Shown: one piece after another, positions 5,861 through 31,934 of the stretch
Layout: each line of letters starts with the position of its first letter
Numbering within the stretch: the stretch's first letter is position 1
Origin: Candidatus Latescibacterota bacterium
Lineage (GTDB): Bacteria > Latescibacterota > UBA2968 > GCA-2709665
Length of the DNA stretch: 64,000 bases
NCBI GenBank assembly: GCA_965208835.1
Contig: OZ242358.1
Span: 4,000,001-4,064,000 of the forward strand
Direction: 5' to 3'
Program-made: the position numbers and the translations under genes
The notes under the pieces: model-generated
Told to the model about the DNA's origin: nothing
Database searches by the model: none
What the model saw: only the letters and a program-made list of their open reading frames with translations

Positions 5861-6424
5861 TCAACATTCCGCTACGACAGGATTCTCCGGGTCTTCCGGC
5901 CATCTGACCGGGTTTTCCCCGATGTATTGCCGAATCCTATTTAAGCTAGACTGATTCCTGATTACGTGGTCGTAGTAACTGCGCTGCCAGACCGCCGCAC
6001 CCGGCGTGCCGCGGAACGAGTTGATGCGTTTGGTTACGGAAGACTTGAACCCTGCCATAAGTGCGCCAAGTGACCTGGCGTGTGGCCCTCCAGGAGCGAC
6101 CGGCCGCTCTGTCCCCTTTCGTTCGTCATTGAGCATGACGATTCCGTGAATATGGTTGGGCATCACAATCCAGGCGTCCAATTGGACTTCACTGCGGACT
6201 TGTGCAGACTTCAACCATTCCTCGGCGGCGATCCGCCCCAAGTCGTTTAGCTGCGTCTCAGCGTCGACCACTTCGCCAAAAAGCAGCTCCCGTCCGAACG
6301 TGCAAGCCGTAATAAAGTAAGCTCCTTTACGAGAATAGTCATATTTCCGCAATCGGAGCGACTGACGACGACGTTTTCCAGGATAGAAAGAAGCGTTCGC
6401 TATCATCTCGGTGTTTTGAAACAC
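5861..6424 (-). mobile_element. REP-associated tyrosine transposase (RAYT, Y1/HUH)
   Basis: RRQSLRL..YDY..GAYFITACT, HUH motif IVMPNHIHGI, WQRSYYDHVIRN, YI..NP; flanked by REPs. Confidence 0.9.
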
Positions 6425-6958: not shown

Positions 6959-7101
6959 GTCCAAACTTCGGCGATAGAAGCGGCAATCGGCAAGTCGAAA
7001 TAGACGGGTTCTTAGGTAGGTCGCTCAAGAGGACGACACTAGCGGGACTCAGGTGCAGCCTGTCGCTAGCCGGATGTTAACCAAGCAGATTGGAGGAAGT
7101 G

Positions 7102-7767
7102 ATGCGTACACTCTTGGTATTCCTCTCGATGACGTTTGCCTCGATTCAATTCGCACAGGCGCAGCCGGCAGATGTCGCGAGTCATGTTGCGGCGCTTAAA
7201 GGCAAGACGTTCTGGCTGAAGATCGCTTTTGTAGAGGTGAACGACGGGATTCGGGGCATCGATGCCGCAAATGTCCTGGAGAACGGCGAAGTTTCGTATC
7301 GCGCAACAATAGGTGGTTTTCGCCAGTCGCAATCCCAGTCGGCCGAGGATTTCGCCGAAGAAGTCCGGAATATAGTTATTCGGGATGAACTTTCCGGTTG
7401 GAGCGTGCGGGTTATTGAAAGGGGCGCGAAAGCTGTCATCCGAAAAGCCGAGGCAAGGGAGAAAGAGGTCTATATAGAACTCGACAAGCTGTCAGGCGCC
7501 CGGCATGCCGTTCGCCTTAAAGTCAATAGAGACAATTATACAATTGCCGAAGTCGATCGCCTCTTCAAGATTGCCTTTGCCGCAAGCGAAGCGAAACTGG
7601 CAGGTTCGGAAGCAACCGTGCTACTTGAGATGAATATGTCCATCGAGGAAGTAATCGACCGCAAAGGCAAGCCCGGAACGCGCATTGAACTCGGCACCAA
7701 AACCATTCTCGCCTATGATGGCCTGAAGCTGATATTCACGGATGGGAAGCTGGTGGATGCGCAGTAG
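7102..7767 (+). CDS. hypothetical secreted protein
   Basis: GGAGG RBS, N-terminal signal peptide, 221 codons; C-terminal KLIFTDGKLVDAQ. Confidence 0.65.
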   Translation: MRTLLVFLSMTFASIQFAQAQPADVASHVAALKGKTFWLKIAFVEVNDGIRGIDAANVLENGEVSYRATIGGFRQSQSQSAEDFAEEVRNIVIRDELSGWSVRVIERGAKAVIRKAEAREKEVYIELDKLSGARHAVRLKVNRDNYTIAEVDRLFKIAFAASEAKLAGSEATVLLEMNMSIEEVIDRKGKPGTRIELGTKTILAYDGLKLIFTDGKLVDAQ

Positions 7768-7964
7768 TGCGACCGGCCGGTCGCCCCTTCAGGCATCATT
7801 GTGGGTCCGAGACGGACCACGCTTCGCAGACCCTTTACACCGGATTGCTCTCGCCGGTTCCCTCGCTATAGTACGCCGTCCCCACATTGTAAATCGCGTC
7901 GCGCCTCTGGCAATACCCGTTTCTGCTCAAGGCGCGCTGCGCGTTTAAGGCGATGTCTCCATCC

Positions 7965-8186
7965 TCATTCTGATCCAGGATCCTCACCAGGTTCGTTTCG
8001 GCGCGGGGCGCAGACACGTTCCGCATCCGCCGCTTCCCACGCGGCCAGTTGTTCCGCGGTGGGCACATACAAGCCTGCTCTCCTGTAGTCGTCATCACTA
8101 AACGGCGTGCCGCCGGCATGCCAGGCGCGGCCGACGATCGGGTCAGTGAATCTTGAACCTCCCGGAGCGGGGTTTCGTTCGTCCAT
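7965..8186 (-). CDS. small protein, WHxDGTP family copy A
   Basis: DPIVGRAWHAGGTPFSDDDYRRAGLYVPTAEQLAAW; ATG 4 nt after the repeat end; homologous to five other ORFs in the window. Confidence 0.7.
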   Translation of the reverse strand: MDERNPAPGGSRFTDPIVGRAWHAGGTPFSDDDYRRAGLYVPTAEQLAAWEAADAERVCAPRRNEPGEDPGSE

Positions 8187-8193
8187 GATAGTT

Positions 8194-8418
8194 TCAATCC
8201 TTGTTCTGAAGGTGGACTTCGTCCGGTCCGACCCGCGGGCCTTCGTCAGTGTCGTGCTTGGCTTTCATATCGTCAATCAGTCGCTCGGTCTCGGCCCAAT
8301 GGGCAAGCTGTTCCGGGGTCGGAACGGGCAGGTTCGCCCGGCGATAGTCGGCATCGGAGAAGGGCGTGCCGTCCGGGTGCCAGCACTGAAAGCCGGCGGA
8401 GTCTTGTCTGTTTCGCAT
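8194..8418 (-). CDS. small protein, WHxDGTP family copy B
   Basis: CWHPDGTPFSDADYRRANLPVPTPEQLAHW; ATG 4 nt after the repeat; stop is the TGA of the next repeat's ATTGAAAC. Confidence 0.7.
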   Translation of the reverse strand: MRNRQDSAGFQCWHPDGTPFSDADYRRANLPVPTPEQLAHWAETERLIDDMKAKHDTDEGPRVGPDEVHLQNKD

Positions 8419-8615
8419 AGCTGTTTCAATCCCTATTCTGTTTGAAGGTCTCCGCCGTGCGAGCCGGCGACGAACGCTCAGCCCTCCACCCGGTTGTACC
8501 TCCGCAACTCCTCCCGCAGCCGGTCATGCGGAAGCGCGCACAATATCACTTCGTTGAATTCCTTCATCTACTCGCCCGCCGCGATCATTTCGACCGCGAC
8601 AAGATAAATCCGATA

Positions 8616-8634: not shown

Positions 8635-8803
8635 ATCAGGTTAAAAAACCTACCATCGGCGGTGCGCTGTCAGCTGAAGGTTCGGGCCAACGGCCGGTCG
8701 CCCCTACCTAACGGTTATTGTTAAACCAGCTTCCAGGCTGGCGGGTGCCGACACTGACGAGCATACAAAAGCGATCTCTTTCGCTGAATTCTCAATCGTG
8801 CGC

Positions 8804-8850: not shown

Positions 8851-8990
8851 TCATTCAATCGTAGAGGACGACCCGCCTGTCATGAAACCAGCCGCAACCT
8901 GGCCTGTATCGACAGCCTCTACATCACGCCAGGCCGCGGGCGATCAGCCCGTTGAACTGCACCAGAACCTCGACTCCGGCGTAAACCTAA

Positions 8991-9150
8991 CAGCCCGTTG
9001 AAAAAGTCCATCCGGGCTACGGCCGGCCCTTGCGGTCGAAATACTGCGTTGTGCTCCCTCGCCGAATCGCAGGATGGGACTCGGTCGCGCGCCTTGTCTT
9101 CGACCACAATGGTTCGGCCTCGCCTGCAGAGCGACTTTATCAACGAACTG
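8991..9150. mobile_element. 160-bp MITE copy 1
   Basis: Imperfect TIRs CAGCCCGTTGAAAAAGTC / GACTTTATCAACGAACTG; flanked by CTAA direct repeat; near-identical to 56215-56374. Confidence 0.75.
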
Positions 9151-9253
9151 CTAAGCCCGTGGCAAAAGCCAGCCCAAATGCCGCCTCAACCGGCATCAAT
9201 GAAAGCGGCGGCGATGGCCTCGGCATTCGGTTTTCTGAAACGGTGACGATTTG

Positions 9254-11291: not shown

Positions 11292-12158
11292 ATGTACGAT
11301 GCCGTCATCGCCCCGTTCGTTGAATTCGGCTTCATGCGTCGGGCCCTGGTCGGGTGCCTCGCCCTTTCGCTGGGAGCGACGCCCATCGGGGTGTTTCTGA
11401 CCTTGCGGCGGATGAGTCTTGCCGGGGATGCCATGGCCCATGCAATCCTTCCCGGTGCGGCGCTCGGGTACCTCGTTGCAGGGCTGTCGCTCGGCGCCAT
11501 GACACTCGGCGGGGTCATTGCGGGAGTGGCTGTGGCTTTGCTCTCCGGAATGGCGGCCCGAACCACCGTGGCCCGTGAGGATTCCAGCCTGGCCGCCTTC
11601 TATCTGATTTCCCTCGCCGTCGGGGTCGTGATCGTCTCGACGCGCGGAAGCAATGTCGACCTGTTGCACATCCTGTTCGGCACGGTACTCGCCTTGAACG
11701 ATGCGGCCATATTCCTGGTCTCGGGAATCGCCACGGTCACCCTTTTCGGGCTTGCCATCATCTACAGACCATTGGTGATGGAGTGTTTCGACCCGGGCTT
11801 TCTCCGCTCGGTCAGTCCCTTGAGTCCGGTTGCCCACTACAGCTTTCTCGTCCTGACTGTCCTCAATCTGGTGGGCGGGTTTCATGCACTGGGGACCCTG
11901 ATGGCAGTGGGCATCATGATACTTCCCGCCGCTGCCGCCCGGTTCTGGACGCGCGACGTCACGCCCCTGGTGGTCATCAGTGTGATTGCGGCCTTCCTGG
12001 GCGGGTTCGTGGGCTTATTGTTGTCCTATTACGCCAGTCTGCCTTCCGGCCCCGCCATCATCCTGACGGCGGGCGCGTTCTATCTGTTTTCGCTGTCTTT
12101 CGGACCTGACGGCGTAATCATGACGCGCCTCAGGCCACGCCGTCATCTGGAAGCATGA
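11292..12158 (+). CDS. zinc/manganese ABC transporter permease (ZnuB/AztB-like)
   Basis: RRMSLAGDAMAHAILPG, LLHILFG, LPSGPAII. Confidence 0.9.
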   Translation: MYDAVIAPFVEFGFMRRALVGCLALSLGATPIGVFLTLRRMSLAGDAMAHAILPGAALGYLVAGLSLGAMTLGGVIAGVAVALLSGMAARTTVAREDSSLAAFYLISLAVGVVIVSTRGSNVDLLHILFGTVLALNDAAIFLVSGIATVTLFGLAIIYRPLVMECFDPGFLRSVSPLSPVAHYSFLVLTVLNLVGGFHALGTLMAVGIMILPAAAARFWTRDVTPLVVISVIAAFLGGFVGLLLSYYASLPSGPAIILTAGAFYLFSLSFGPDGVIMTRLRPRRHLEA

Positions 12159-12185
12159 TTTTAATACCGAGCTACGAGTAAGCTT

Positions 12186-13199
12186 ATGACATCGAAGCGA
12201 TCTATCCTGTTTTCCGTCTTCGCCGCTTGTTTGATCGCCGTGTCAGGTTCGGGGACCGTCGGCGCCGATGCCCCCATTGACGTTGTCGCATCGTTCAGCA
12301 TCCTGGGTGATATGGTCCGGCAGGTAGGCGGTGAACGGGTGCGCGTCACTACCCTCGTCGGCCCCGACAGTGACGCGCACGTCTATCGGCCGACTCCGGC
12401 CGACGCGCGGGCCATCGCCGGGGCCAGGCTGTTGGTCGTCAATGGATTGGGCTTTGAGGGCTGGATAGACCGTCTCACGGAGGCATCCGACTACAGGGGG
12501 CCAGTGGTGACGGCGACAGCAGGCGTCGAACCCCGCAGGGTGGCGGATCCCGATCGCGGCGAAATCGATCCCCATGCCTGGCAGAGTCTGGCCAATGCCC
12601 GGATCTACGTCCGCAATATCGCCGACGGATTGGCTGCGATCGACCTGGCGGGGGCCGAAATCTATCGCGGCAACGTGGCGCGTTACATGAAGGAGATCGA
12701 CGAGGTCGAGGCACAGGTTCGCGAGGCGATCGGTTCGCTGCCGGTCGATCGGCGCAAGGTGGTCACATCCCATGACGCTTTCGGCTATCTGTCTGCAGCC
12801 TACGGCATCGAGTTCCATGCACCGGTCGGGTTCAGCACCGAAGCGGAGGCCTCCGCGGGTGACGTGGCCAGGCTGATTCGTCAGATCAACAGCGAGAAGA
12901 TTCCGGCGGTCTTCGTCGAGAACATCTCCGACCGCCGCCTGCTCGACCAGATCGTCCGGGAAACCGGAGCGAAGATCGGCGGCACGCTCTACTCAGACGC
13001 TCTGTCGAAGGCGGACGGGCCGGCCGGCACGCACCTTGACATGATGCTGCACAACATCCTGACGTTGTTCGCCGCCCTGTGCGACTCATCGGGTTCAGAG
13101 ACCAGGGGTGTACGTCTTGTCCGTGGAGCTGACGCAAGCCCTCGAACGCCGTGCGCAACCAGCTGCCACGAGAGTTGCGCGGCGAGGAGAAGCCCATGA
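12186..13199 (+). CDS. metal ABC transporter substrate-binding protein (ZnuA/AztC-like)
   Basis: VVASFSILGD, DAHVY, DPHAW, TSHDAFGY, LYSDAL. Confidence 0.9.
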   Translation: MTSKRSILFSVFAACLIAVSGSGTVGADAPIDVVASFSILGDMVRQVGGERVRVTTLVGPDSDAHVYRPTPADARAIAGARLLVVNGLGFEGWIDRLTEASDYRGPVVTATAGVEPRRVADPDRGEIDPHAWQSLANARIYVRNIADGLAAIDLAGAEIYRGNVARYMKEIDEVEAQVREAIGSLPVDRRKVVTSHDAFGYLSAAYGIEFHAPVGFSTEAEASAGDVARLIRQINSEKIPAVFVENISDRRLLDQIVRETGAKIGGTLYSDALSKADGPAGTHLDMMLHNILTLFAALCDSSGSETRGVRLVRGADASPRTPCATSCHESCAARRSP

Positions 13200-13657
13200 A
13201 TAGCAAAGCGCTTTCCCGGATCCTGGAACGAGCCGAGGCGTTGTGCCATGAGCGCGGCGCGCGGCTGACCGAACAACGCAAGGCCGTGCTTCAACTGCTG
13301 TGCGTATCGGACAAACCACTCAGTGCTTACGAGCTGTTGGAACGCATGCGCGGCGTTGTCAGAAATCCCGCGCCGCCCACGGTCTACAGGGCATTGGATT
13401 TCCTGCTTGGGCAGGGCCTGGCGCACAGGCTCGAGAGCCTGAACGCATACGTGGGCTGCGCACATCCGGATCATCCGCACGCCAGCCAGTTCCTGATCTG
13501 TGATGACTGTGGCGACGTGGCCGAGGTTGAAGACCCCATTGTGGTCAGGAGCCTGAAAGCGGCAGGCAAGGAGATAGGATTTCGTACCAGGCGGCCGGTC
13601 GTCGAACTGCTGGGAACCTGTGCGCAGTGCATTTCGGATAGAGACGGTCTTGCTTGA
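13196..13657 (+). CDS. zur: Fur-family zinc uptake regulator
   Basis: RLTEQR, SAYELL, PPTVYRALDFL, FLICDDCG, GTCAQC. Confidence 0.8.
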   Translation: MNSKALSRILERAEALCHERGARLTEQRKAVLQLLCVSDKPLSAYELLERMRGVVRNPAPPTVYRALDFLLGQGLAHRLESLNAYVGCAHPDHPHASQFLICDDCGDVAEVEDPIVVRSLKAAGKEIGFRTRRPVVELLGTCAQCISDRDGLA

Positions 13658-20386: not shown

Positions 20387-20625
20387 CTTGTTCCTCCTTG
20401 AAAACGAGTAGCGTTGTCCAGCGAAGTGTGGACCTGAAGCGGGCTCGGATTTACAACGAGGCGTAAGCCTGACGACTGTGGCCGCAACGACCCTGGAGGC
20501 ATATCTGAGAACGTCGCCCTAAACAGGATCAGGACCGTCGACGACGGGCACCTGATTTCGGAGCGGTCGATCCGGCATGCTGCCTGCTCTCATTATTCAG
20601 AGATACACTTGATTTGCCGGCGTCG

Positions 20626-21149
20626 TCAGCAGTCTGGCGTACCTGACCCGCGCCACGGCGTCAAACGTGGCCACCAGCGGCGCACGTTCAGGCAGTAGGT
20701 CTCGTTCGACCCCCGAATCTTTCTCGGAGTTTCGGCTCTTCATAAAGCAGCACGGTCAGGTGGAACGCGGCGAGCATCACCCCGGCGTACGCCGCAAGCC
20801 GGGCCCGGCCAAACAGTAGCGCCTGCCCTGAAATGATGATCAGCACGGAGATGTACATCGGGTTTCGCACGAACCGATAGAGGCCGGAAGCGACCAGCAT
20901 TTCGGTTTACGCCACCGGCGCCGGTGTGCCGCGCCCCTCGAGGACGAAACGGGCGAAGCAGTCCAGCAGGCAGGCCAGACCCGTCGCAACCGCCGCAACC
21001 CCCATTAATCGCTCGCCGGGCAACCCGAGCAGCAGTGGCTGTATCGTCCAGCCGACCAGTGCGAACGGGACGACACCGGCAACGACAGCCGGAGCGACCC
21101 AGAAGAAGACGAACGACCCGACGATCGCACGCGTACGTGTGCGCTTCAC
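20626..21149 (-). pseudogene. isoprenylcysteine carboxyl methyltransferase (ICMT/PEMT) family pseudogene
   Basis: EGRGTPAPVA-TAA-TEMLVASGLYRFVRNPMY in a single frame (nonsense at 20907-20909); the C-terminal YCLNVRRWWPRLTPW lies in another frame. Confidence 0.75.
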
Positions 21150-21186
21150 GTTTCAATCCTTGTACTGATGGGAGTGACCAGAGATC
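21150..21186 (-). repeat. solitary CRISPR-like repeat of the second (AAGGATTGAAAC) family
   Basis: Minus strand CCATCAGTACAAGGATTGAAAC, directly followed by the GTG start of the pseudogene. Confidence 0.65.
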
Positions 21187-21292
21187 GATCAGTGTACTGG
21201 TCTTGACGATCGGTGTACATGTTTCAACTGGAATGTATAACATCCCCGGGAAATCCCCAGGTTCCAGACCCCCGCGGCTACTTGTGAGAGTT

Positions 21293-24200
21293 TCAATATT
21301 CCGGTGGTGAGAGATCGATCGCCCATTCTTTGAACTTCGAGACGTTGACGTCGGATCGGTCGAGGAGTGTAAGGAGTTCCTCCTGGCGGGGTTGCCCAAA
21401 GACAACCCGGTAGGCTGCGAGTTGACGTTTGAGGCGTACGAACGCTTCGACCTCCGTCGTGTATGGCAATAGTGGTACATGGCGCTGCACGAAGCAGTCT
21501 CCGGGGGCGATCCAGTGAGGTACCAGGTCGCTTTTCCCGGCGGCTCGCGCAGCCTGGTCGGCCAGCGCGAACATCTGTCTCCAGATATCTTCACCCGCCC
21601 TCCATGACGTCAAGGCGTCGTGCGCGTGGCGAGCAGCGACGTTTCGCCGGACCGCATGGCCCTTATAACGGTGAATCCGGCCTTCGCGTTGCTCAAGATC
21701 GACCGGATTGCCCGGAAGGTTCCAGTGGACCAGGGAGTGACACCACGGATGGAAGTCGAGCCCCTCCTGTCCAATCGACGTACTGGCAAGCACAAACGGC
21801 CGAAACGGGCTATTGAAAGCGTCCCTCACGACGTCCTGGCTGATGTGATCACCTTCGTCCGTTCGGATGTGGCCGAAGCGTAGCGCGAACGCCGTGCGAA
21901 GGCGGGTTACTTCGAGTTCAGGCTTTGTTCCACTTCCTCCCGCACCTTCTGTCTCAAAGAACCTCGCATGGACGCGAGAACGCATTGGACGTACAACCTG
22001 GATGAGTTTGCGGGCGCATCTGCCGGCGATCTCGTCACCGCTGGCGTCGCCGGACCACGACTCCTGGTCCCACAGCAGGTGCCACTGCTCGTCAAGTACT
22101 GCCTGCAGGTTCCCGTGGCGGCAGTAGCGAAGTACCAGTCGCCAGTAGGCCGAACCATCGCGCTCTTCCGCTCCTCTGTCGGCAAGCTGGCGCAGCAGCG
22201 CCGTCACGGCAGGCTGATTGAAGAGACGCCAGAACGCGACTGCAATCATGGCCGCGAACCGGCGACGTGAATCATCGCCAATTCCCGTCCCGTTTCTCAG
22301 GCTGCGTGCCGCGAGAATCGCCGGCGAACCAATGGCGACCTCGGTGAGCAATCTCGCAAGATTTGCCGGACGCCGGCCGAGTTTTCGCGGATCGACCCTG
22401 AGCAGATCGTCGATGTACGCACCGAAGCCTTCCGGATTTGGACGACCCGTGTCATCCGATAATCCAGGAAGTTCGCCATCCGCCCACGTGCCAAGAAAAC
22501 TGCGCAGATCCGGATCCATCAACAGCGGCGCCATCCACTCCCACCTGTCATCAATATCTCCTTCTTGCGGGTTAGGAAGCTTCGGATCGGCAAGAAGTTC
22601 GTCGACCCGGTCTCGCACCCACGCCCGGCGATCCTGTCCAGACCGAAAGTCCAACGGATGCGCCCGGTCCGCCAGCGGAAGGCACGGTATGAGCAGCAGC
22701 AGGAGACGATGGCGGGAAAGGCCGCCCAATTTCGACTTTGCGAGCCTTAAAAGTGGTCTCTGCTGCTCGGCAAGTTTCTCATATGACCCATTCCGGCCAC
22801 GCGTCATCAGTCGTTCAGCTTCGTAGCTTAGTACGGCGCTGACAACGTCGGGCACCACGTTCCAAGCCGAAAACAACAGGCGCTTCGTTGCTTTTTCCTT
22901 GCCCTTGAAGGGTCCTTCAAGCGGCCAGTACGGAAGCGTCGGCGGCATCCAAAGAAGGCGCCATATCCCCTTGTCGATCAACTCCCCGACCAATTCACGC
23001 AGCTTGGCACTTCCGGGGTCGATGCTTTCCCACCTACGTATCGTCGCTGGCGTCAAGAACGCCGACTTATGTTGCTGAAGAACCTCGACGATCTTTCCCG
23101 GCGTGTTAATTGCCTCGTCGAGTAGTTCGTTGAACCTGTAACCTCGCATGAAGTGAGCCAAATACGGAGCTGATTTCCAAAACGGCATCGGATCGCGGTC
23201 ACCGACGGCCCGAAACAACGCGTCGGCGGCCAGGTACTGGCGCACGTCGGTTGAGGTCACGGTCGCGTTACTCGGGACCTCTGCCACCATCGCGTCATTG
23301 TCTTCACTGGCTGCGACGCGCTCGGATCGCGCCATCACGTTCCTGAGCGTTCCTTCGACCTCGCGTTTCGCTTGTTCGACTCGCCCCGGCCCATCCGGTT
23401 CTCCCGCTGCCGCGCGCTTTAATGCTGACCCGAAACGCGAGAACTGGCTCTTAATCTCTTCGACAACCGCGTCATCGTCGCCATACAAGAACCTTGTTGT
23501 GGCCAGGAAGTCCTCGTAGTGGTCCTCGTGTTCGATCTCCGCATCTGCGGTGTAGAGTTTGTACGGCGTCGCGGAGAGCAAGAGCGTCCGCACACGCTTA
23601 CCGTCGTGCGCTTTGGCCTGGAACAACTCATGAGCCAGGTGCGCCGCGGGGTCTCGCTCGCCGTCACTTGTGTCGAGCAGCGACTTAAAGCGCTGGAACT
23701 CGTCCAGGATTACGAGGTCGGGCTCCAGGGCCTTGACGCACACTTTGGCGAGTACCCGGCGCAAATCCGATATAAGCCGGTCTCGCCGGTACCGCAGATC
23801 GTCCGGCCAGTAATTCCGGTAGTAGCCGAACGCACTCAGGATTTCTCTAAATCTGTACTCCAGACCGTGGCACTCATGAAACGCATTCTCAAACCTTCGC
23901 CGTATTGAGTCTTCGATAGGTCGGGGGCGGTTGTTGAGGAACCATCGCCAGTCATCCCGGTTCGTAATCCATCCCTGCAGGAAATTCATAAGCGCCGTGC
24001 GCCGTTCGGTCAGGGGATCGAGCAGTTGAAACAGCACCTCCCGTTCCGGGCGCTGGCCGGCGGATTGCCCCATGTTGAAGGATGTTCCCGGCGTGAAACT
24101 GACGAAGTTCAGCTTGCTGTCGACGAGACCTGGTTCGCCTTCCTTACGCGCCAGTTGCGTGGCCAACATCGTGAGACGTGTCGCCAATGCGAACGACCGT

Positions 24201-24487
24201 TCTTCGGCGCCTCCGATCCTCAGCTTTGGGAGATTGGCTCGTGCGATGCCGGCATTGCTGCAAATGTAGATGATGTCGATCCGTTTGACGTCGTCCCAGA
24301 GGTGATCGATGGCGCGCGCAATGATACCGCGGGCGACCAGCGTCTTCCCAAGGCCCACCTCGTCGGCCACCAGGAAGCGTCCTGTACTGTCTTCCGCAGT
24401 GAACAAGCGGTGGAAGGCATGTTCTACTGTCCGCCGTTGGAAGGATTTGAGTGGTTTAAGACCCGCGTCTACCGATGGACGCTTCAT
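21293..24487 (-). CDS. SF2/SNF2-like helicase of a putative defence operon
   Basis: ADEVGLGKT, ILDEFQ, LLLSATP, QEGLDFH, EQREGRIHRY. Confidence 0.85.
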   Translation of the reverse strand: MKRPSVDAGLKPLKSFQRRTVEHAFHRLFTAEDSTGRFLVADEVGLGKTLVARGIIARAIDHLWDDVKRIDIIYICSNAGIARANLPKLRIGGAEERSFALATRLTMLATQLARKEGEPGLVDSKLNFVSFTPGTSFNMGQSAGQRPEREVLFQLLDPLTERRTALMNFLQGWITNRDDWRWFLNNRPRPIEDSIRRRFENAFHECHGLEYRFREILSAFGYYRNYWPDDLRYRRDRLISDLRRVLAKVCVKALEPDLVILDEFQRFKSLLDTSDGERDPAAHLAHELFQAKAHDGKRVRTLLLSATPYKLYTADAEIEHEDHYEDFLATTRFLYGDDDAVVEEIKSQFSRFGSALKRAAAGEPDGPGRVEQAKREVEGTLRNVMARSERVAASEDNDAMVAEVPSNATVTSTDVRQYLAADALFRAVGDRDPMPFWKSAPYLAHFMRGYRFNELLDEAINTPGKIVEVLQQHKSAFLTPATIRRWESIDPGSAKLRELVGELIDKGIWRLLWMPPTLPYWPLEGPFKGKEKATKRLLFSAWNVVPDVVSAVLSYEAERLMTRGRNGSYEKLAEQQRPLLRLAKSKLGGLSRHRLLLLLIPCLPLADRAHPLDFRSGQDRRAWVRDRVDELLADPKLPNPQEGDIDDRWEWMAPLLMDPDLRSFLGTWADGELPGLSDDTGRPNPEGFGAYIDDLLRVDPRKLGRRPANLARLLTEVAIGSPAILAARSLRNGTGIGDDSRRRFAAMIAVAFWRLFNQPAVTALLRQLADRGAEERDGSAYWRLVLRYCRHGNLQAVLDEQWHLLWDQESWSGDASGDEIAGRCARKLIQVVRPMRSRVHARFFETEGAGGSGTKPELEVTRLRTAFALRFGHIRTDEGDHISQDVVRDAFNSPFRPFVLASTSIGQEGLDFHPWCHSLVHWNLPGNPVDLEQREGRIHRYKGHAVRRNVAARHAHDALTSWRAGEDIWRQMFALADQAARAAGKSDLVPHWIAPGDCFVQRHVPLLPYTTEVEAFVRLKRQLAAYRVVFGQPRQEELLTLLDRSDVNVSKFKEWAIDLSPPEY

Positions 24488-26319
24488 GATCGTGGCTCCG
24501 GTGCGATTGCCTCCTCGACTGCCGTCCAAATACTGAATAGTTCGTCTGGCACGATCAGGCGCCCTTCTTCAGTCTTCCGAAGTTCGTCGATCAGGCGACG
24601 TACCGGCTTCAGGCGATCGGGGTCTCGGGACGCGGTACGGACGAGATCATCCAGCAAGGTCTCACCGCTCTGCCCTATTCCCCAGTTAGAGGAAGGTTCT
24701 CCTTCTCCGCTATCTTGCGCCCAGCCGAGTACAGTGTCGAGTCCGCCCAGCAACGCCCTCAGGAAACGAAGGAACTTCTCAGGGGTGTCCAGCAATCCCT
24801 TGAGTACGTGATGCATGCGATCTTCAGGCATACCGTGAGCCGGAAGTCGCAGGGTCATGCGGACGTCGTCCACGCCCTGGACGTTGACACTCAGCCGAAA
24901 GGCGATGAATGCCGTCAGACGCACAATGGGCAGATTCCAACTGATCGTTTTCTCCAGGCGCAGTGCTTGATCTTCGGCTACGGAGACGGGCCAGGCTTCG
25001 ACCTGGACATCGTCGGCCATTTGAAATTCGGGCCCGGTGATAGCCAGCGTCCATGAGTCGCCTGAGGAACCGCATCTCACTTGCAGGTTAGAATTCAAGA
25101 GGTCGTCCCCCAAGGCTTCAAGGCGTTTTCGGGCAGCGGCGATGGCTGGGTCTTCTATCTCCGGATCGACTCTCTTATACTTCATGCACAGCTTCCGAAA
25201 TCCGGCGTCAAGGAACCTATCGATGCCCTGACCGCTGTGGCCCCCTTTGCGTCCCTTCTTTCCCGTGATGGATGCAACCATTTCGACGTTTCTGCCATTG
25301 AACGCCGACGCTGTCAGGTTGGCGGAACCGACGTACCACGTAACGTCCCAACGGTGCTCCACGGCGATCATCTTGGCGTGCAGCCCCGACGGGCGATCAA
25401 TCCCGCCAGTCATCGGTTCGTTCTGCTCAGCCAGACTTTCCTCGGGCTCCCCATGCGCGGTATCCCTAAGGACGAATACATCGTTCCATTCCGCCAGTGC
25501 ATCTTCAGCGAGTCTGTCGAGTTCCTCCTGCCTGCTCACGAGCATTCGGTCGTTACCGCTCAACTCCCTGACGACCCCCAGTCCGGTCCGACTGATGAAC
25601 GGCGCCACCGCAAGTGTTCGATATCCATTCGACGGCGGTCGCCAGTGACGGCGACGCCTGGACAATCCGATTGAATGGAATTCGACAGGAGATGCGAAGC
25701 CGTCCGGGGCGGGAAACCTGATTCGTGAAACCTGATCGGCAAGTGCATCAATGCGATCGGCGACATCCGTGAGAACCGGGTTTACGGCCAGACGAGGTAG
25801 CGCTTCGAGGAATTCACGGAGTGGTCGGCTGACGGCCGCACGCCTCCTGCCCCGAAGCCGCGCCTCGCTCGCGAGCGCAACGTCCCACGAACGGTCAAAT
25901 GTCAGATTGCGCGACAGGATTGCAACGCGCAAAACGTCTTCGGCATCCTCCCCCGAGGCAACAAACCGAGCCGCCCACACCTTCGGGTGGAATGCGCCAC
26001 CGTTTGGGGCGCGTACGGCATGCACACTCGGCTCGAGCATTGAGTACAGAGGTCTCACGTTGCGTGGAATTGCAATGCCCGTTTCATCAACAAACACGTG
26101 GATACGGTCGCCAGCGTCACGGATCGCCTGGTGCAGCCTCAGTGGATCTTGAAGCAACTCATTCAACCCTTCGTCCGTATGCGCGAGCACCGATAACGGA
26201 AGCAGCAGCATCGTTTCCAGATCCAGGGTATAGGTCGTCAGTACAGCAAAGTCGAGGTCGTATCCGCTCGGCGGGCGGAGCAACTCGAAGGCTGTGGTAC
26301 GCGATTCGGGCGATAACAT
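24484..26319 (-). CDS. phospholipase D-family (HKD-type) nuclease-like protein
   Basis: FHPKVW...SRNLT and LHAKMI...YVGSANLT motifs; overlaps both neighbours. Confidence 0.8.
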   Translation of the reverse strand: MLSPESRTTAFELLRPPSGYDLDFAVLTTYTLDLETMLLLPLSVLAHTDEGLNELLQDPLRLHQAIRDAGDRIHVFVDETGIAIPRNVRPLYSMLEPSVHAVRAPNGGAFHPKVWAARFVASGEDAEDVLRVAILSRNLTFDRSWDVALASEARLRGRRRAAVSRPLREFLEALPRLAVNPVLTDVADRIDALADQVSRIRFPAPDGFASPVEFHSIGLSRRRRHWRPPSNGYRTLAVAPFISRTGLGVVRELSGNDRMLVSRQEELDRLAEDALAEWNDVFVLRDTAHGEPEESLAEQNEPMTGGIDRPSGLHAKMIAVEHRWDVTWYVGSANLTASAFNGRNVEMVASITGKKGRKGGHSGQGIDRFLDAGFRKLCMKYKRVDPEIEDPAIAAARKRLEALGDDLLNSNLQVRCGSSGDSWTLAITGPEFQMADDVQVEAWPVSVAEDQALRLEKTISWNLPIVRLTAFIAFRLSVNVQGVDDVRMTLRLPAHGMPEDRMHHVLKGLLDTPEKFLRFLRALLGGLDTVLGWAQDSGEGEPSSNWGIGQSGETLLDDLVRTASRDPDRLKPVRRLIDELRKTEEGRLIVPDELFSIWTAVEEAIAPEPRS

Positions 26320-27530
26320 CAGGCGGCCAACCCCCTGTGAAGGTCGGTGAGAAACTGCCGGACGCGAACCCAGCGAAAGTCCATCCGACCAACGCCGACC
26401 CATGGTTTCCACTCCATCAGGCGACTCCGGTTTCCAAGTCGTGCGCGTGCTCCCTTCAGGTGTGACTCGCGTTCGGTAACCAACTCTCTTAACTGTTGGT
26501 CGTTGGCGATCCTGCCGGCATTCAACTTGGTAATGTGTCGAGACCAATCTTGAATGAAGAGTCGTTGGTGATGTGGAGCAAGCCCGCCGCGTCGAGCTAC
26601 CAATTCCCAGAGCGGATCCGGATCGAATGGTTGAGCTTCTTCCGCCTCACGCCCCGCCCATTCAGTGAGCTCTGCACGGAACGAACTGATTAATTCGCCA
26701 TCATCGTCAGTGTCAAGCATCTCGCGACGGTGTTCGGCCACAACCAGATTGTAGAGCAGTGGCATGCCCTCGACGTGTAGAGAGAACCGCCGGGCTAGTT
26801 CCACGGTATCACGAATACTCTGAGGTGCGCGGAGGGCGTCCGGATCGTCCCAGAAGTCGTCCCCGGGCGAATCGGATCCATTGCGGGCCAGCCACGCCAG
26901 CAGGGCACCGGCGCAACGTTCCTCCAGGCGGCCGAGAAGGAAGTCGGCCTCGTCACGGTTCAACGCGAAGGATGCCTCCCACGGAAAGCCAGCCGGCGGC
27001 GACGGCATACGCGGATGCCAGTGCGCATCACGGCTCCAGATAACGCCTGGATCGTCCGCCCGCCCCACACTGCCGCGGCCATCCGCAAGCGCGTCAAAGT
27101 GCGAGTGGTACCAACTCAGGCTCTGCTGCGGCCTAAAGATGCCCCATCGAGTCAGCGCGCTCCAGTATATCGAACTTGGTAACCGGACGAGTGAGTGGCG
27201 GGCGTATACGCCGATGATGCCCTTCTTGTCTTCGCCCTGTTCCAATCGTCCGATAAGATCGACTTCCGCCTGACGCGCGGCTCGCTCCACGTCTACACTC
27301 CTTACCCGACGCGTCTCCAACCTCCGGTAGATCCATGGAATGAGGAGTACATAACGCAGCCGCGTCTGGATATAAGACGTGCCGGGAAAAAGTGCGTCAG
27401 AGATCGCGTCCCGTAGGTTTCCGAGCCCCATCTCGTCGAGCGTGCCCTGCTCGTTGAACAGGTCCAGCACCCGCCGCATCTTGTCGCGGTCGCCCGCCGT
27501 CAGGTCGAGCCAGGTCAACGTCGCCTGCAT
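26319..27530 (-). CDS. DUF6361-like protein, first gene of the defence-type operon
   Basis: LTWLD...GTLDEMGLG.LRDAISD.LFPGTS.IQTRLRY...PSSIYWSAL..WGI, recognised from memory as DUF6361. Confidence 0.7.
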   Translation of the reverse strand: MQATLTWLDLTAGDRDKMRRVLDLFNEQGTLDEMGLGNLRDAISDALFPGTSYIQTRLRYVLLIPWIYRRLETRRVRSVDVERAARQAEVDLIGRLEQGEDKKGIIGVYARHSLVRLPSSIYWSALTRWGIFRPQQSLSWYHSHFDALADGRGSVGRADDPGVIWSRDAHWHPRMPSPPAGFPWEASFALNRDEADFLLGRLEERCAGALLAWLARNGSDSPGDDFWDDPDALRAPQSIRDTVELARRFSLHVEGMPLLYNLVVAEHRREMLDTDDDGELISSFRAELTEWAGREAEEAQPFDPDPLWELVARRGGLAPHHQRLFIQDWSRHITKLNAGRIANDQQLRELVTERESHLKGARARLGNRSRLMEWKPWVGVGRMDFRWVRVRQFLTDLHRGLAA

Positions 27531-27557
27531 TGCGTGAGTCCTTGTACTGATGGATTC

Positions 27558-27749
27558 CTACCGGGAACCGCCGGACTGACGACGTCGACGCGCACATTCA
27601 GCATCGGCCTTTGCCCACAGAGTGAGCTGGGAGAGCGTAGGCACAGGCAGGCCGGCGTTGCGGTAGTCCTGGTCACGGTAAGGTGTCCCGTCCGCATGCC
27701 AGCACCGGCCTGGGCCACCTGTCTGTTTGTCGACGACTCGCTTGGTCAT
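27558..27749 (-). CDS. small protein, WHxDGTP family copy C
   Basis: GPGRCWHADGTPYRDQDYRNAGLPVPTLSQLTLW; ATG 4 nt after the repeat. Confidence 0.7.
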   Translation of the reverse strand: MTKRVVDKQTGGPGRCWHADGTPYRDQDYRNAGLPVPTLSQLTLWAKADAECARRRRQSGGSR

Positions 27750-27756
27750 ATTGGTT

Positions 27757-27960
27757 TCAATCCCCGTTCTGATGAAAGATCCCCAACGGGTTTTGTCTTT
27801 CCGCTTCAGCCCAGGCTAATAGCTGTTCATCCGTTGGGGGAGTCAATCCCGCCTTGATGTAGTCGGCTTTGTTGAAGGGCGTTCCGTCTTCATGCCAAGC
27901 CTGACCAACAATCGGATCGGCCATTTTTCTGCCTTTGGTGATGTTGGGATCTCTTGGCAT
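27757..27960 (-). CDS. small protein, WHxDGTP family copy D
   Basis: DPIVGQAWHEDGTPFNKADYIKAGLTPPTDEQLLAW; AAGGAAGG RBS; stop inside the repeat. Confidence 0.7.
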   Translation of the reverse strand: MPRDPNITKGRKMADPIVGQAWHEDGTPFNKADYIKAGLTPPTDEQLLAWAEAERQNPLGIFHQNGD

Positions 27961-28111
27961 GTCAAACCTTCCTTGATTCGGCGTTTATGATTATGGGAGC
28001 GTCTAATTTTGATTCTTTGGCGTCTTGCCAACCGTCAAGGCAGGCTTTCATGGATGCACGGGAAAAGGTTGGGCCGTTTCTGTAATTTGTGCGCTTGTCG
28101 CTGTAGGGATT

Positions 28112-28332
28112 TCAATCCTTGTTCTGATGGAAGATCCCCAACGAGTCGACCTGCTGGCGCTGGTCGTCTTGGGCCCACTCGAGCAGCTGCTTGGCCGTGG
28201 GACAACCTGTCCGGCACGGCGATACTCTTCCAGTGTGCAGGGTGTACCGTCCTCACGCCACATACGAGAGATGCCGCCTGACTGTCTGTTTGGGCCTTTG
28301 ATGAGGCGGAATCTTCTTGGTCGCTTGGGCAT
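28112..28332 (-). pseudogene. small protein, WHxDGTP family copy E (1-nt frameshift near 28200)
   Basis: MWREDGTPCTLEEYRRAGQVV, then PTAKQLLEWAQ...GIFHQNKD* in the adjacent frame. Confidence 0.65.
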
Positions 28333-28394
28333 GCTGGTTTCAATCCTTGTTGTGACGGAAGATACTCGCAGGGCACCGGCCACTGTTTTTGTTT

Positions 28395-28610
28395 TCAATC
28401 CGCTCCCCTGCGCGGGGAGCGACTGGAGTTGCCCGAGGACTGACGCCGCCGCGCTCGCCGAGCATCGGCGCGAGCCCAGAGCATGAGCTGGAAGAGCGTA
28501 GGTACAGGCAGGCCGGCCTTGCGGTAGTCCTGGTCACTGTAAGGTGTTCCGTCGGCATGCCAGCAGCGGCCTGGGCCGCCTGTGTGTCTGTCAAGGATTC
28601 GCTTGGGCAT
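28395..28610 (-). CDS. small protein, WHxDGTP family copy F
   Basis: GPGRCWHADGTPYSDQDYRKAGLPVPTLFQLMLW; lies between the terminal I-C repeat and an I-C-like repeat; close paralogue of copy C. Confidence 0.7.
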   Translation of the reverse strand: MPKRILDRHTGGPGRCWHADGTPYSDQDYRKAGLPVPTLFQLMLWARADARRARRRQSSGNSSRSPRRGAD

Positions 28611-28615
28611 GCGGT

Positions 28616-30360
28616 GTATCACTCCGCGCCCCCGCGTGGGGGGCGACCCAAGACCCGAGACGTGGGCGGTATGGCTTTCGTGTTTCAATCCACGCCCCCG
28701 CGTGGGGGGCGACGTCCGGCTGCTGCCGGCGTCAGGATAACGCGGTCGTTTCAATCCACGCCCCCGCGTGGGGGGCGACGTATATGTTGGAAAACCTTTG
28801 GTTCTTTGTCTGTTTCAATCCACGCCCCCGCGTGGGGGGCGACAGACCGGCCCGACTTCGATGTGCGGGATAGGGTTGTTTCAATCCACGCCCCCGCGTG
28901 GGGGGCGACTGTGACTACTGCCATACGCTATCCGAATCGACCGGTTTCAATCCACGCCCCCGCGTGGGGGGCGACAGATTCACTCTCAAGCGGGGGAGTC
29001 CAATCAAATTGTTTCAATCCACGCCCCCGCGTGGGGGGCGACCGCCATCAGAGGCGGCACACGCACCTCCATCTTGTTTCAATCCACGCCCCCGCGTGGG
29101 GGGCGACGTGTCAATCGTTCCGCCGAAAAACAAATCCGGGTGTGTTTCAATCCACGCCCCCGCGTGGGGGGCGACCTGGGCCGTATCCGTGACGACCCGC
29201 AGCCGGTTCTGTTTCAATCCACGCCCCCGCGTGGGGGGCGACTGACCATACGGCAGTTTTTCGCCGCCGTTGCCATGTTTCAATCCACGCCCCCGCGTGG
29301 GGGGCGACCCCGCCTGGGTTCCGCCAAACAGACGCCTGACAAGTTTCAATCCACGCCCCCGCGTGGGGGGCGACCCTGATACGATCAAACCACATTCACC
29401 TATTAAGGTTTCAATCCACGCCCCCGCGTGGGGGGCGACTCAGGATCTCGGCGTCATCATCCAGAGATCGGAGTTTCAATCCACGCCCCCGCGTGGGGGG
29501 CGACCAGCATATCGAAGACGCCATCAACCAGGCACTGGAGGTTTCAATCCACGCCCCCGCGTGGGGGGCGACAGCCGGAGAAGTTTGTGCGCCGCATCTT
29601 CGGATGTTTCAATCCACGCCCCCGCGTGGGGGGCGACACACGAAATATCCGGGCCATCCCTACGAGTTTATGTTTCAATCCACGCCCCCGCGTGGGGGGC
29701 GACGAGGTATCGGAGGCCAAAGTCCTTGATGCCAAGGTTTCAATCCACGCCCCCGCGTGGGGGGCGACCGGAGGCTACCGCGGCGGCGGAGGACATCCTA
29801 TTTGTTTCAATCCACGCCCCCGCGTGGGGGGCGACTCACGGGCAAGAGAACGGGCGGCGGGCCGGGCAAGAGTTTCAATCCACGCCCCCGCGTGGGGGGC
29901 GACCTTGTACGTCGCCTCGAGCAGCTGGCGGGCCGTGTTTCAATCCACGCCCCCGCGTGGGGGGCGACTGGCCTCCCGGCTCTCTTTCGCTATGCTGATT
30001 AGTTTCAATCCACGCCCCCGCGTGGGGGGCGACCCAGCCGGCGGGCCAGGGTCTGGACGTGGGTCTGTTTCAATCCACGCCCCCGCGTGGGGGGCGACAC
30101 CCTCGTCAGACAGTACCCGGGCAGAGTATGAGTTTCAATCCACGCCCCCGCGTGGGGGGCGACCAAACACATGGATCAAACTCTGTAGTAAATATAGTTT
30201 CAATCCACGCCCCCGCGTGGGGGGCGACATCGGAATGAAATCCGAATGCCGGATGCTGGAGGTGTTTCAATCCACGCCCCCGCGTGGGGGGCGACGATTG
30301 TGGGCAAAGACAACCAGATGGACGGTTTGTTTCAATCCACGCCCCCGCGTGGGGGGCGAC
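28616..30360 (-). CRISPR. type I-C CRISPR array, 27 repeats (26 consensus plus 1 degenerate trailer), 26 spacers of ~32-36 nt
   Basis: 32-nt repeat GTCGCCCCCCACGCGGGGGCGTGGATTGAAAC at ~66-nt period; degenerate copy at 28616-28647. Confidence 0.98.
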
Positions 30361-30546
30361 TGTTGCAAGCTAATACGTTGTGTCGCAATACGAAAATGAC
30401 GAGCTGGCGCGAACCGTATCCAGCTCTCTTAGTTTAGAATAGCTACTTGCACCATCGTGACTCGAATCTCTTTAAGTATCAATGGGTTGTACAATGCGCG
30501 GACCTCCCCGTGTTTACCTGACCGCTTGTGGTTCGCACCTGCCCAC
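30361..30546 (-). promoter_or_regulatory. CRISPR leader
   Basis: AT-richer non-coding stretch between cas2 and the first repeat, at the end opposite the degenerate repeat. Confidence 0.7.
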
Positions 30547-30837
30547 TCACACAATCAATGTTCCGTTCAAGTCGGTCGCCGGCTTGGCACCAATGTGCTC
30601 TACACGTCGCTTCCAATTAGCACCAAGGAAATAATATCTGAGACTGTCGGTTTCTAAATTGATGATCGCCTCAAGCTGGGCACTTAAAGCGGCCCATTGC
30701 GCGGGCTCCACCTCAATCTCGAACACAGAAAACTGCACTCTTTGTCCAAAATCGCGACATATCTTAGCGACACGACGTAAACGACGTGCGCCGCCATCGG
30801 ATGTCGTCGAGACGTCGTACGTAACGAGAACCATCAT
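30547..30837 (-). CDS. cas2: CRISPR-associated endoribonuclease Cas2
   Basis: MMVLVTYDV...RRLRRVAK.C..FGQRVQFSVFE...DSLRYY. Confidence 0.95.
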   Translation of the reverse strand: MMVLVTYDVSTTSDGGARRLRRVAKICRDFGQRVQFSVFEIEVEPAQWAALSAQLEAIINLETDSLRYYFLGANWKRRVEHIGAKPATDLNGTLIV

Positions 30838-30899
30838 GGTTGTTGGCTTTTCTTTCCTCGCGGATGCGGCCGTCGTTCAAGAGAGTAGGTTGAGTAGCC

Positions 30900-31934
30900 T
30901 CATTTCCATAACCACGGCGGGTGGGCATCTAAGTCGCCTCGAAGATGCCGAGCCAGCAATTGTGCTTGGAGATATGGAACTAAACCGAGCGGTGCCTGCT
31001 CCCCAAGAAAGGGATGGCGACGCTCTACACGCTTTCGCTCCTGCCATGCACTGAGAACCGTTTTGCGAGCGGCATCGCTCATTGAGACGCTGCCGCCTTC
31101 TCGAACTTGGAAGTCCTTAGCGCGTATTTGCCGACGATTGACTAGCGATAGCACAAGCCGATCAGCCAAGACGGGTCGCAGCTCTTCCATAAGGTCTAGC
31201 GCAAGACTCGGACGGCCGGGACGATCTCTATGAAAGAAGCCCACTGCCGGATCCAAGCCAACGCTCTCGGCGGCAGAGTTGCAGTCGTGAACGAGAAGCG
31301 TATATAGAAATGAAAGCAGGGCATTCACAGGGTCACGTGGTGGCCGACGGTTGCGACCTGCAAATGCCATCTCTGGTTCGGGTACGCGGATCAGGAGACC
31401 AAAGAACGAAAAATAGAGCCGTGCGGCCTCGCCTTCAAAACCTCGTAGTCTATCAACACTGTCGTGGCCGTCGCTAATGCGTTGCACAATCTGCCGCAGG
31501 CGATTTGTGGCGACGGACATAGCTTCTCGGCTAGAAAGCTCAAGTTGGTCTCCATAGTCGCGCTGCGCTCTTTGCAAGACGGCTCTCTGATTAGCGATCT
31601 TGCCGACGAGAATGCTGCGGACGATTTCTTCCGGTGTGTCGCTGACTCTATATTGTGCGCGACGCAGCAGTACATTGCCAGAAACTGGACCCTCGACTCG
31701 GGCTTGGAATCGGCCGAATCGACTTAGGAGTACTAAGACGATGCCACCGGCAGCGCAGGCTTGGATCAGAGGTGGAGATATATAGATGCTGCCGAACACC
31801 ACCACCGACCCCAGCATGTGGAACGGAACCCTCACACGTTCCTCGCCCTCTACTTCCGCGACCAGATTCTCGCCGTCCTTGGTCAGACGTGCTTCAGGCG
31901 TAGTAACGTATAGCGTATTGAGCAACCGCCTCAT
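30900..31934 (-). CDS. cas1: type I-C Cas1 integrase
   Basis: MRRLLNTLYVT, SGNVLLRRAQY, LRGFEGEAA, RRPPRDPVNALLSF, LALDLMEELRP. Confidence 0.95.
   Translation of the reverse strand: MRRLLNTLYVTTPEARLTKDGENLVAEVEGEERVRVPFHMLGSVVVFGSIYISPPLIQACAAGGIVLVLLSRFGRFQARVEGPVSGNVLLRRAQYRVSDTPEEIVRSILVGKIANQRAVLQRAQRDYGDQLELSSREAMSVATNRLRQIVQRISDGHDSVDRLRGFEGEAARLYFSFFGLLIRVPEPEMAFAGRNRRPPRDPVNALLSFLYTLLVHDCNSAAESVGLDPAVGFFHRDRPGRPSLALDLMEELRPVLADRLVLSLVNRRQIRAKDFQVREGGSVSMSDAARKTVLSAWQERKRVERRHPFLGEQAPLGLVPYLQAQLLARHLRGDLDAHPPWLWK

Follow-up and report, generated by a model that had tools for sequence, protein, structure and literature searches.

The repeats of CRISPR loci are usually viewed as bracketing short, invader-derived spacers, or as standing alone in small regulatory or decoy RNAs. 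The locus described here has translated genes under selection in spacer positions, an arrangement that is persistent across a genus. It lies in a 64,000-nucleotide window (the whole stretch of DNA analyzed, positions 4,000,001 to 4,064,000 of contig OZ242358.1) of a Candidatus Latescibacterota bacterium. The genome of this bacterium, G000 (assembly GCA_965208835.1), is 5.18 Mb in a single contig and is 97.8% complete, and the genus set consists of 15 genomes (G000 and 14 sisters). The genes in question belong to a new, rare family of small proteins with a sharply conserved core, and they follow the trailer end of a type I-C CRISPR array.

Ordinary type I-B and I-C arrays have the same repeats, the same orientation and the same location by cas genes as this locus, and their units are also gained and lost at repeats. 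Their spacers are invader fragments of 33-37 nucleotides (nt), whereas the 'spacers' here are genes of 180-200 nt or a 6.4-kb Azaca operon, and most of the repeats are solitary. Integron cassettes are mostly promoterless, packed genes that are separated by attC hairpin sites and read from one end. The present locus shares with integron cassette arrays a recurring recombination site between packed genes and a content that varies among close relatives, but a CRISPR repeat without structure takes the place of the attC hairpin as its boundary, and some of its cargo is found on the opposite strand. No integron integrase was seen among the proteins scanned, though no dedicated search was made.

Single repeat units and mini-arrays are reported from cas loci and their surroundings (Shmakov et al. 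2023, PMC10120712), CreA of CreTA (PMC8501985) and the RNA anti-CRISPR Racr (PMC10651486) are reported as regulators resembling CRISPR RNAs (crRNAs), and cyanobacterial array-targeting Tn7-like transposons carry tns genes and no cargo and insert into spacers (PMC11837452). The nearest described things are the solitary repeats and mini-arrays that make small RNAs and the transposons that land in arrays. The former also have stand-alone repeats, and one module of the present locus (an I-C-like repeat, 17-18 nt and a second repeat) is mini-array-like; their products are small non-coding guide-like or decoy RNAs, whereas the repeats here bracket translated genes. Unlike Racr and viral mini-arrays, which a virus, prophage or plasmid carries, this locus is chromosomal, and its family has no relatives in the IMG/VR, phage and plasmid collections. 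The transposons also bring foreign DNA to a fixed position inside CRISPR arrays; in contrast, the units here are without transposase genes and have the repeats as their boundaries. Translated genes between CRISPR repeats were not found described in the full-text literature searched, which did not cover subscription journals or supplements.

Judging from sequence comparison, we consider it moderately likely that the locus is the trailer end of a CRISPR locus whose spacer positions hold protein-coding genes; these would be rearranged as one repeat recombines with another, and expressed by transcription that continues from the array promoter. The array, the repeats, the small open reading frames (ORFs) and the downstream genes zacABC are all on the minus strand. 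The array repeat is called R1 and the 37-nt repeat R2; the array and the first units past it, in minus-strand order, are composed as follows.

28682..30360, minus strand: type I-C CRISPR array; its 26 repeats of 32 nt, GTCGCCCCCCACGCGGGGGCGTGGATTGAAAC, are identical and its spacers measure ~33-36 nt
28616..28647, minus strand: degenerate terminal I-C repeat, ending 5 nt ahead of the ORF C ATG
28395..28610, minus strand: ORF C, 71 amino acids (aa), family member
28391..28423, minus strand: I-C-like variant repeat, hairpin and handle GGATTGAAAAC
28374..28390, minus strand: 17-nt 'spacer' between the I-C-like variant repeat and R2 copy 1
28337..28373, minus strand: R2 copy 1, a 37-nt repeat of the type I-B class, ending 4 nt ahead of the ORF D ATG
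28112..28332, minus strand: ORF D, family pseudogene by comparison with the intact orthologue in sister genome G011
28109..28145, minus strand: R2 copy 2, ending in ATTGAAAT
27961..28108, minus strand: non-coding stretch of 148 nt, with a well-placed Shine-Dalgarno sequence AAGGAAGG 6 nt ahead of the ORF E ATG
27757..27960, minus strand: ORF E, 67 aa; R2 copy 3 codes for its tail, GIFHQNGD, and supplies its TGA stop
27754..27790, minus strand: R2 copy 3, ending 4 nt ahead of the ORF F ATG
27558..27749, minus strand: ORF F, 63 aa, 98% identical to the G011 copy
27531..27557, minus strand: decayed fourth R2 with a mutated handle, directly abutting the zacA ATG

The cas genes are upstream of the I-C array, with cas1 at 30924-31916. 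The downstream I-C-like variant repeat encodes the final 9 codons and the TGA stop of ORF C. Relative to the intact orthologue in G011, ORF D is missing 1 nt near 28201/28202 and, elsewhere, a run of 17 nt whose loss took away its own stop. The inter-repeat segments of 27531-28647 range from 17 to ~330 nt and hold paralogous ORFs, so that this stretch lacks the uniform short spacers of a CRISPR array; the next inter-repeat segment is the 6.4-kb Azaca operon. A preliminary description of this DNA had placed four paralogous small ORFs among CRISPR repeats past the I-C array, and this layout is confirmed on the minus strand with its coordinates and motif. It had given all four as ORFs of 63-73 aa, which holds for C, E and F and not for the frameshifted D. 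It had also counted one I-C-like variant and four 37-nt repeats; the variant and three R2 copies stand, and the fourth R2 is the decayed copy.

The flanking elements are genuine CRISPR repeats of two classes: the I-C hairpin repeats and the unstructured 37-nt R2 of type I-B, in agreement with the preliminary assignment to CRISPR-type repeats. The 27-nt core of R2 occurs 3 times in the window and 0 times in 100 shuffles. An R2 20-mer has 6 matches with up to 3 mismatches in the 5.18-Mb genome, all of them in the window and on the minus strand (0 for the reversed control); besides the three of the 27531-28647 region, two bracket a second pair of family members, ORFs A and B, and one follows zacC (21150-21186). 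R2 aligns with the Rfam family CRISPR-DR7 at 37/37 positions, at 27 bits for the window copy and 34.5 bits (E 7e-5, again 37/37 positions) for the array repeat of G010, both below the gathering score of 37. R2 forms large arrays with a period of ~74 nt in sister genomes, with ~65 copies in G010 and ~90 in G012; G003 has at least 6 copies within the part that was fetched. R2 is the repeat of a type I-B system with Cas6b. In G010, the array adjoins Cas6b (Pfam Cas6b_N/C, 1.6e-17 and 3.6e-32), a Cas8-like protein, Cas7 of the DevR type (1.8e-65), Cas5, Cas3 and Cas1. A third class, R3, is the hairpin repeat of a I-C variant in G012. The last 10 nt, GGATTGAAAC, are common to R1, R2 and R3. In RNA folding, R1 and the I-C-like variant form a hairpin followed by a single-stranded handle (28391-28423, -21 kcal/mol, z -4.3), and R2 folds at the level of shuffled sequence (z -0.5 to +1.4).

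Cas6b is found in 3/15 genus genomes and I-B Cas7 in 4/15. Neither was found in G000 with PF17262, TIGR02585, PF01881 and the G010 Cas6b protein as queries, nor was a classical Cas6. Because no Cas6b or other type I-B gene is present, the R2 copies of G000 are orphans of a system kept by relatives. G012 (L038/L039) holds its ~90-repeat R2 array, yet neither Cas6b nor I-B Cas7 was found in this 95% complete genome, and only the I-C variant with its own R3 array lies beside it. This array may be an orphan, or it may be shared across systems. The succession of I-C-like hairpin repeat, conserved 'spacer' of 17-18 nt (…ACAGTGGCCGGTG…) and R2 occurs once in G000 (28337-28423) and twice in G011 (L037), and it resembles a regulatory mini-array, an element that in the manner of CreA has a short spacer with partial complementarity to a promoter of its locus. 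The 16-nt part of this spacer (28374-28389) has only its self-match in the window at up to 3 mismatches, a search that did not cover seed-only matches.

The small ORFs are real protein-coding genes, and they are under purifying selection at the protein level. The six copies of the window, when aligned, share invariant W, G, T, P, Y, A and P residues (core W..GTP....Y..A....P). Across 36 sequences, one P never varies and W, H, D, G, P, Y and T hardly do; the family core reads WHxDGTPF..DY..AG..PT..QL. The ratio of non-synonymous to synonymous substitution rates (dN/dS) was calculated for pairs among 24 intact ORFs. The 276 pairs comprised 177 usable ones, 96 in which dS was saturated and 3 in which it was too small; the median was 0.28, and none of the 177 usable pairs reached 1. 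Selection on the protein, which the preliminary description had proposed, is thus borne out. A GC-rich genome yields many spurious ORFs, which is the basis for reading the units as chance ORFs in a non-coding repeat or a miniature inverted-repeat transposable element (MITE). This is refuted by the dN/dS and by conserved homologues: 69 of these, with the core, occur in other assemblies, and a stand-alone homologue in a Caldilineaceae genome has its own Shine-Dalgarno site. The probability left to it is negligible.

The family is rare and unnamed. A profile search finds it in 12/14 sister genomes, clustered in every case, and so in 13/15 genus genomes including G000. The profile also finds it in 1/7 genomes of other genera of the same taxonomic family; it is absent by this search from 19/19 genomes of a second taxonomic family and from 146/146 genomes of the rest of the phylum. 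Among 1.84 billion protein representatives, there were 65 matches at E ≤1e-3, several of which are long repeat proteins, matched in all likelihood through a short motif. A search of 5.8 billion proteins gave 69 small homologues, and none has a Pfam domain or an informative name. A scan of genome contigs gave one locus outside the phylum, in Caldilineaceae (L057), and a scan of metagenomes gave one short contig (L058). Among 301 genomes of the class of the Caldilineaceae genome, the family is found only in that genome. The gene there stands alone among housekeeping genes and has its own Shine-Dalgarno site, with no repeats and no cas genes around it; it is the only copy outside the taxonomic family that was viewed in context. 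The linkage of repeat and ORF is conserved in the genus, where 22/30 full-length copies start within 8 nt of a repeat, and does not extend to this homologue. The small ORFs have no match in Pfam or PADLOC, 0/36 family members match NCBIfam, and 1/36 matches PHROGs, at E 0.004; these databases give the family no name. No relatives were found in IMG/VR (with the profile and with proteins P0055 and P0036) or, by tblastn, in phage and plasmid collections, and a viral or plasmid origin of the family was rejected on these searches. Within the genus, 4-5 copies are frameshifted or pseudogenes, which fits fast turnover.

The genes are closely linked to the repeats. The genus loci hold 37 profile matches to the family, 30 of them full-length, and in 22 of these 30 a repeat ends no more than 8 nt ahead of the start codon, mostly 4-5 nt. 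The stop of a family ORF is 1 nt before the next 37-nt repeat or is a TGA inside ATTGAAAC, so that the gene fills the spacer position almost exactly. The in-repeat TGA serves ORFs A, C and E, and D as well once its frame is restored; in sister genomes, the majority of copies end at a stop of their own ahead of the repeat. Every family ORF reads in the direction of the crRNA sense of its repeat. A family ORF is the first element after the last repeat in three arrays of three classes, R1 in G000 and R3 and R2 in G012. Among 25 R2 copies upstream of ORFs, the consensus is at least 72% at 32/37 positions and 52-68% at the other five; at positions 13-17, 19-21, 23, 26-30 and 32-37 it is at least 88%.

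Sister genomes vary in their units of repeat and gene, which have been inserted, deleted or exchanged at breakpoints that fall within repeats. G000 and G011 hold exactly one extra unit (R2 and ORF F) upstream of zacA compared to G009 and G006, and here too the breakpoints are inside repeats. The repeat ahead of a PEMT/ICMT-like membrane methyltransferase gene downstream of zacC is R3-like in G011, G009 and G006, R2 in G002 and an R3/R2 chimera in G000. The G002 copy of this gene has an unrelated upstream neighbor, and homology begins at the repeat. The family locus itself is chromosomal and is kept in place within the genus.

These comparisons involve larger cargo in spacer positions, which is arranged in the window as follows.

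21293..27530, minus strand: Azaca defence operon in 'spacer' position, identified by PADLOC; DUF6361
26319-27530, minus strand: zacA (PADLOC ZacA, 2.6e-121)
24484-26547 (longest ORF), minus strand: zacB (PADLOC ZacB, 7.7e-162)
21293-24529, minus strand: zacC (PADLOC ZacC, E=0)
21150..21186, minus strand: chimeric repeat after zacC, 5' half R3-like (I-C-variant class) and 3' half R2
20600..21149 (end approximate), minus strand: decayed PEMT/ICMT-like membrane methyltransferase gene

ZacA, ZacB and ZacC are encoded in one operon at 21293-27530, which is the definition of Azaca. The operon has an equal repeat-bounded position in G011, G009 and G006, and ZacA is found in 6/15 genus genomes. The small-ORF family was considered as an Azaca accessory and rejected, given ZacA in 6/15 genus genomes versus the family in 13/15. 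The GTG of the PEMT/ICMT-like gene follows the chimeric repeat at 0 nt, and the gene starts 0 nt past its repeat in five genomes. In G000, this gene has an in-frame TAA at 20906-20908 (CAG in the sisters) and a frameshift (a 1-nt gap near the 3' end); its orthologues in sister genomes are intact and have 174 aa. Other cargo between single repeats of sister genomes comprises Nmad3, a methyltransferase, DUF4126, an EEP-family nuclease and DUF4432.

One explanation for such cargo is that Cas1-Cas2 integrated oversized spacers, inserting the units, or at least their founders, at repeat borders, so that the array would be an integron-like capture platform. The junctions are exactly at the repeat-'spacer' border, 0-5 nt before the starts of three unrelated genes, many copies have their stop 1 nt before the next 37-nt repeat, and the cargo between single repeats is as varied as just listed, from Nmad3 to Azaca; all of this would fit. 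The units are at the trailer end, however, and not at the leader where integration occurs; a single founder could give rise to all of the family junctions, and the chimeric R3/R2 repeat and the unit gained or lost upstream of zacA are outcomes of homologous recombination. We know of no precedent for the insertion of 180 bp to 6 kb by Cas1-Cas2, although no search aimed at one was made, and we consider this origin improbable.

In the explanation that we favor, a founder gene would have come to sit between two array fragments. Recombination between repeats deletes and duplicates ordinary spacers; here, homologous recombination between repeats would have duplicated, moved and deleted the units of repeat and gene. 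The same process would have reduced neighboring arrays to single repeats and made the chimeric repeats. The R2 repeats, orphaned in G000, would serve there as junction sequence and as boundaries for recombination rather than as sites of processing. The small genes appear to lack their own promoter and, mostly, a well-placed ribosome-binding site, and they would be expressed by read-through from the array leader promoter. Read-through is suggested because the sole promoter-like match is in the leader, no terminator-like site intervenes and well-placed Shine-Dalgarno sequences are mostly missing. Where Cas6b is present, in three sister genomes, each repeat of the same transcript would be cleaved.

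Several observations weigh against this explanation. The R2 copies are well conserved although the intervening ORFs are saturated at synonymous sites; neutral scars should have decayed, and the repeats would thus be selected for a function of their own or be homogenized by recombination. The family ORFs, zacA and the PEMT/ICMT-like gene, which are unrelated, start 0-5 nt past the end of a repeat, and this spacing is more regular than passive trapping predicts. Among inter-repeat ORFs of at least 100 aa, 69 are on the same strand as the repeats and 34 on the opposite strand, 7 of the latter being at least 290 aa long; the count comes from a crude greedy ORF call, and many of the short ones on the opposite strand are probably spurious. 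These numbers do not uphold a single orientation for the whole cargo, and with cargo on both strands one read-through transcript cannot serve all of it.

The expression signals are as follows. A sigma-70-like promoter match in the array leader, at 30631..30658 on the minus strand, is the sole match on that strand in 20800-31000; it is a consensus match only, with 1 found versus 2.9 expected in shuffles. Terminator-like matches on the minus strand are found only within zacC and just inside the decayed methyltransferase gene, and there is no terminator-like site between the array and the small ORFs or zacA. The genome uses Shine-Dalgarno sites, with a peak spacing of 6-9 nt, and most family ORFs are without a well-placed one. 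R2 contains AAGGA, which is 11-12 nt from the ATG; genome-wide spacing counts are 10 and 6 at 11-12 nt (near background) versus a peak of 49 at 7 nt. The supply of a ribosome-binding site was therefore rejected as the main reason for the repeat. Five sequencing runs from two studies contain the stretch, all of DNA or unknown type, with no RNA run among them.

In engineered operons insulated by Csy4 or Cas6, a CRISPR repeat precedes each cistron and the ribosome-binding site is downstream of the cut. A natural counterpart, the cassette system of the preliminary description, would exist here if the transcript of array and ORFs were cut by the pre-crRNA nuclease (Cas6b, or Cas5d via GGATTGAAAC in G000) into one small mRNA per unit, with the repeats as operon 'insulators'. 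This idea is attractive because the solitary repeats are conserved at full length. It also accords with the 10-nt end common to all three repeat classes and with ORFs that follow the crRNA sense and almost exactly fill the inter-repeat space; ORF C lies between I-C-type repeats, and the intact hairpin of its downstream repeat could be cut by Cas5d. G000 has no Cas6b or I-B genes, however, and neither do 10/13 of the family-carrying genus genomes. R2 RNA is without a hairpin, and the model would require Cas5d in G000 to act on a repeat that is both unstructured and foreign. A cut placed 8 nt from the R2 end would yield a leader of 12 nt with no Shine-Dalgarno site, in a genome that uses these sites; the engineered operons keep their ribosome-binding site downstream of the cut. 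The same distance of 8 nt from the repeat end would also separate ORFs A, C and E, and D once its frame is restored, from their stop codons. We rate cutting into individual mRNAs as somewhat unlikely for the locus as a whole; it is possible that it applies mainly to the three Cas6b-bearing genomes.

The same predicted cleavage site, which is upstream of the in-repeat TGA in ORFs A, C, E and D (in restored frame), is the starting point for an opposite idea, in which normal crRNA processing would keep the embedded genes silent by taking away the AAGGA ahead of them and some of the stops. The proteins would be made only if processing were blocked or cas genes lost, as a back-up or addiction module akin to CreTA, and the Azaca defence operon directly downstream would suit such a role. 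We rate this as very improbable because, in other genomes, the majority of copies end at a stop of their own ahead of the repeat; moreover, the cognate nuclease was not found in most genomes, nothing indicates toxicity, and 4-5 copies are pseudogenes.

A broader version of these ideas is that the CRISPR arrays of this lineage double as platforms for the capture and expression of genes. Genes without promoters, ranging from one for a 60-aa protein to the Azaca operon, would be installed and exchanged as giant 'spacers' at repeat borders, transcribed from the leader and, in genomes that have Cas6b, released as individual mRNAs. We regard this as unlikely on the present comparisons. If true, the platform would be a CRISPR-based analogue of the integron, in which the expression of accessory defence genes is tied to array transcription. 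If the repeats only mediate recombination, the arrays would be hot spots that shuffle defence-island genes, which bears on how defence islands are built. If they serve in processing as well, the locus would be, as far as the literature searched shows, the first case in nature of mRNAs made by pre-crRNA processing, and innate defence genes such as Azaca would be linked to CRISPR expression.

The AlphaFold model of the family protein (pLDDT 79) is composed of a hairpin and two helices. Foldseek against the PDB gave nothing at E ≤0.001, the best hit of a wide VIA-align search had a Z of 3.5, and the ESM Atlas gave no usable match. The best PDB sequence match is the N-terminus of a bacterial type IB topoisomerase (2f4q), at E 0.01 for the sequence and 0.15 for the stretch. 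The likeness covers 20 residues (…HPDGTPYTDAD), at family profile residues ~14-33, and it is a lead, not a finding, toward a putative DNA-contacting hairpin. Two fusion proteins of ~450 aa have the family domain in front of a helix-turn-helix domain. A 421-aa ORF of G001, between repeats at 11993-13258 (+) of L035, has the family domain at its C-terminus; its N-terminal part has no Pfam match, and a motif there (...DGCLVIVEIKRD...) looks like that of a PD-(D/E)xK nuclease. The basic tails of the family and its fusions to nuclease-like and helix-turn-helix domains hint that the protein may be a small nucleic-acid-associated adaptor domain.

The second locus of the window, at 7955-8459, is composed of two repeat-ORF units.

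8423..8459, minus strand: R2 copy with a decayed 5' part and an intact GGATTGAAAC, ending 4 nt ahead of the ORF A ATG
8194..8418, minus strand: ORF A, 74 aa, with its stop within the following R2
8191..8227, minus strand: R2 copy, ending 4 nt ahead of the ORF B ATG
7965..8186, minus strand: ORF B, 73 aa, the copy nearest to the family members outside the genus
7955..7990 (approximate), minus strand: strongly decayed R2 that overlaps the end of ORF B

ORFs A and B probably mark where the locus originally had its far end. A stretch beside it, with an opposite-strand ORF of 225 aa (7090-7767), has matches 0-11 kb from family ORFs in seven sisters. In G006, ~0.4 kb instead of ~1.4 kb lies between the flanks of the A/B site, and in G011 the A/B stretch is without a match between matching flanks. 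An IS200-like Y1 transposase ORF (Pfam Y1_Tnp 2.6e-5, above the 23-bit cut-off) is near the A/B locus, at 5861-6424 on the minus strand. Two copies of a motif of the GGGGCGACCGGCCG type, resembling repetitive extragenic palindromic (REP) elements, flank the locus at ~7765-7790 and ~8680-8710. An element of ~168 bp is found at 8986-9154 and 56212-56374, with 91-97% identity and at least 20 matches in each genus genome. It has a MITE-like appearance.

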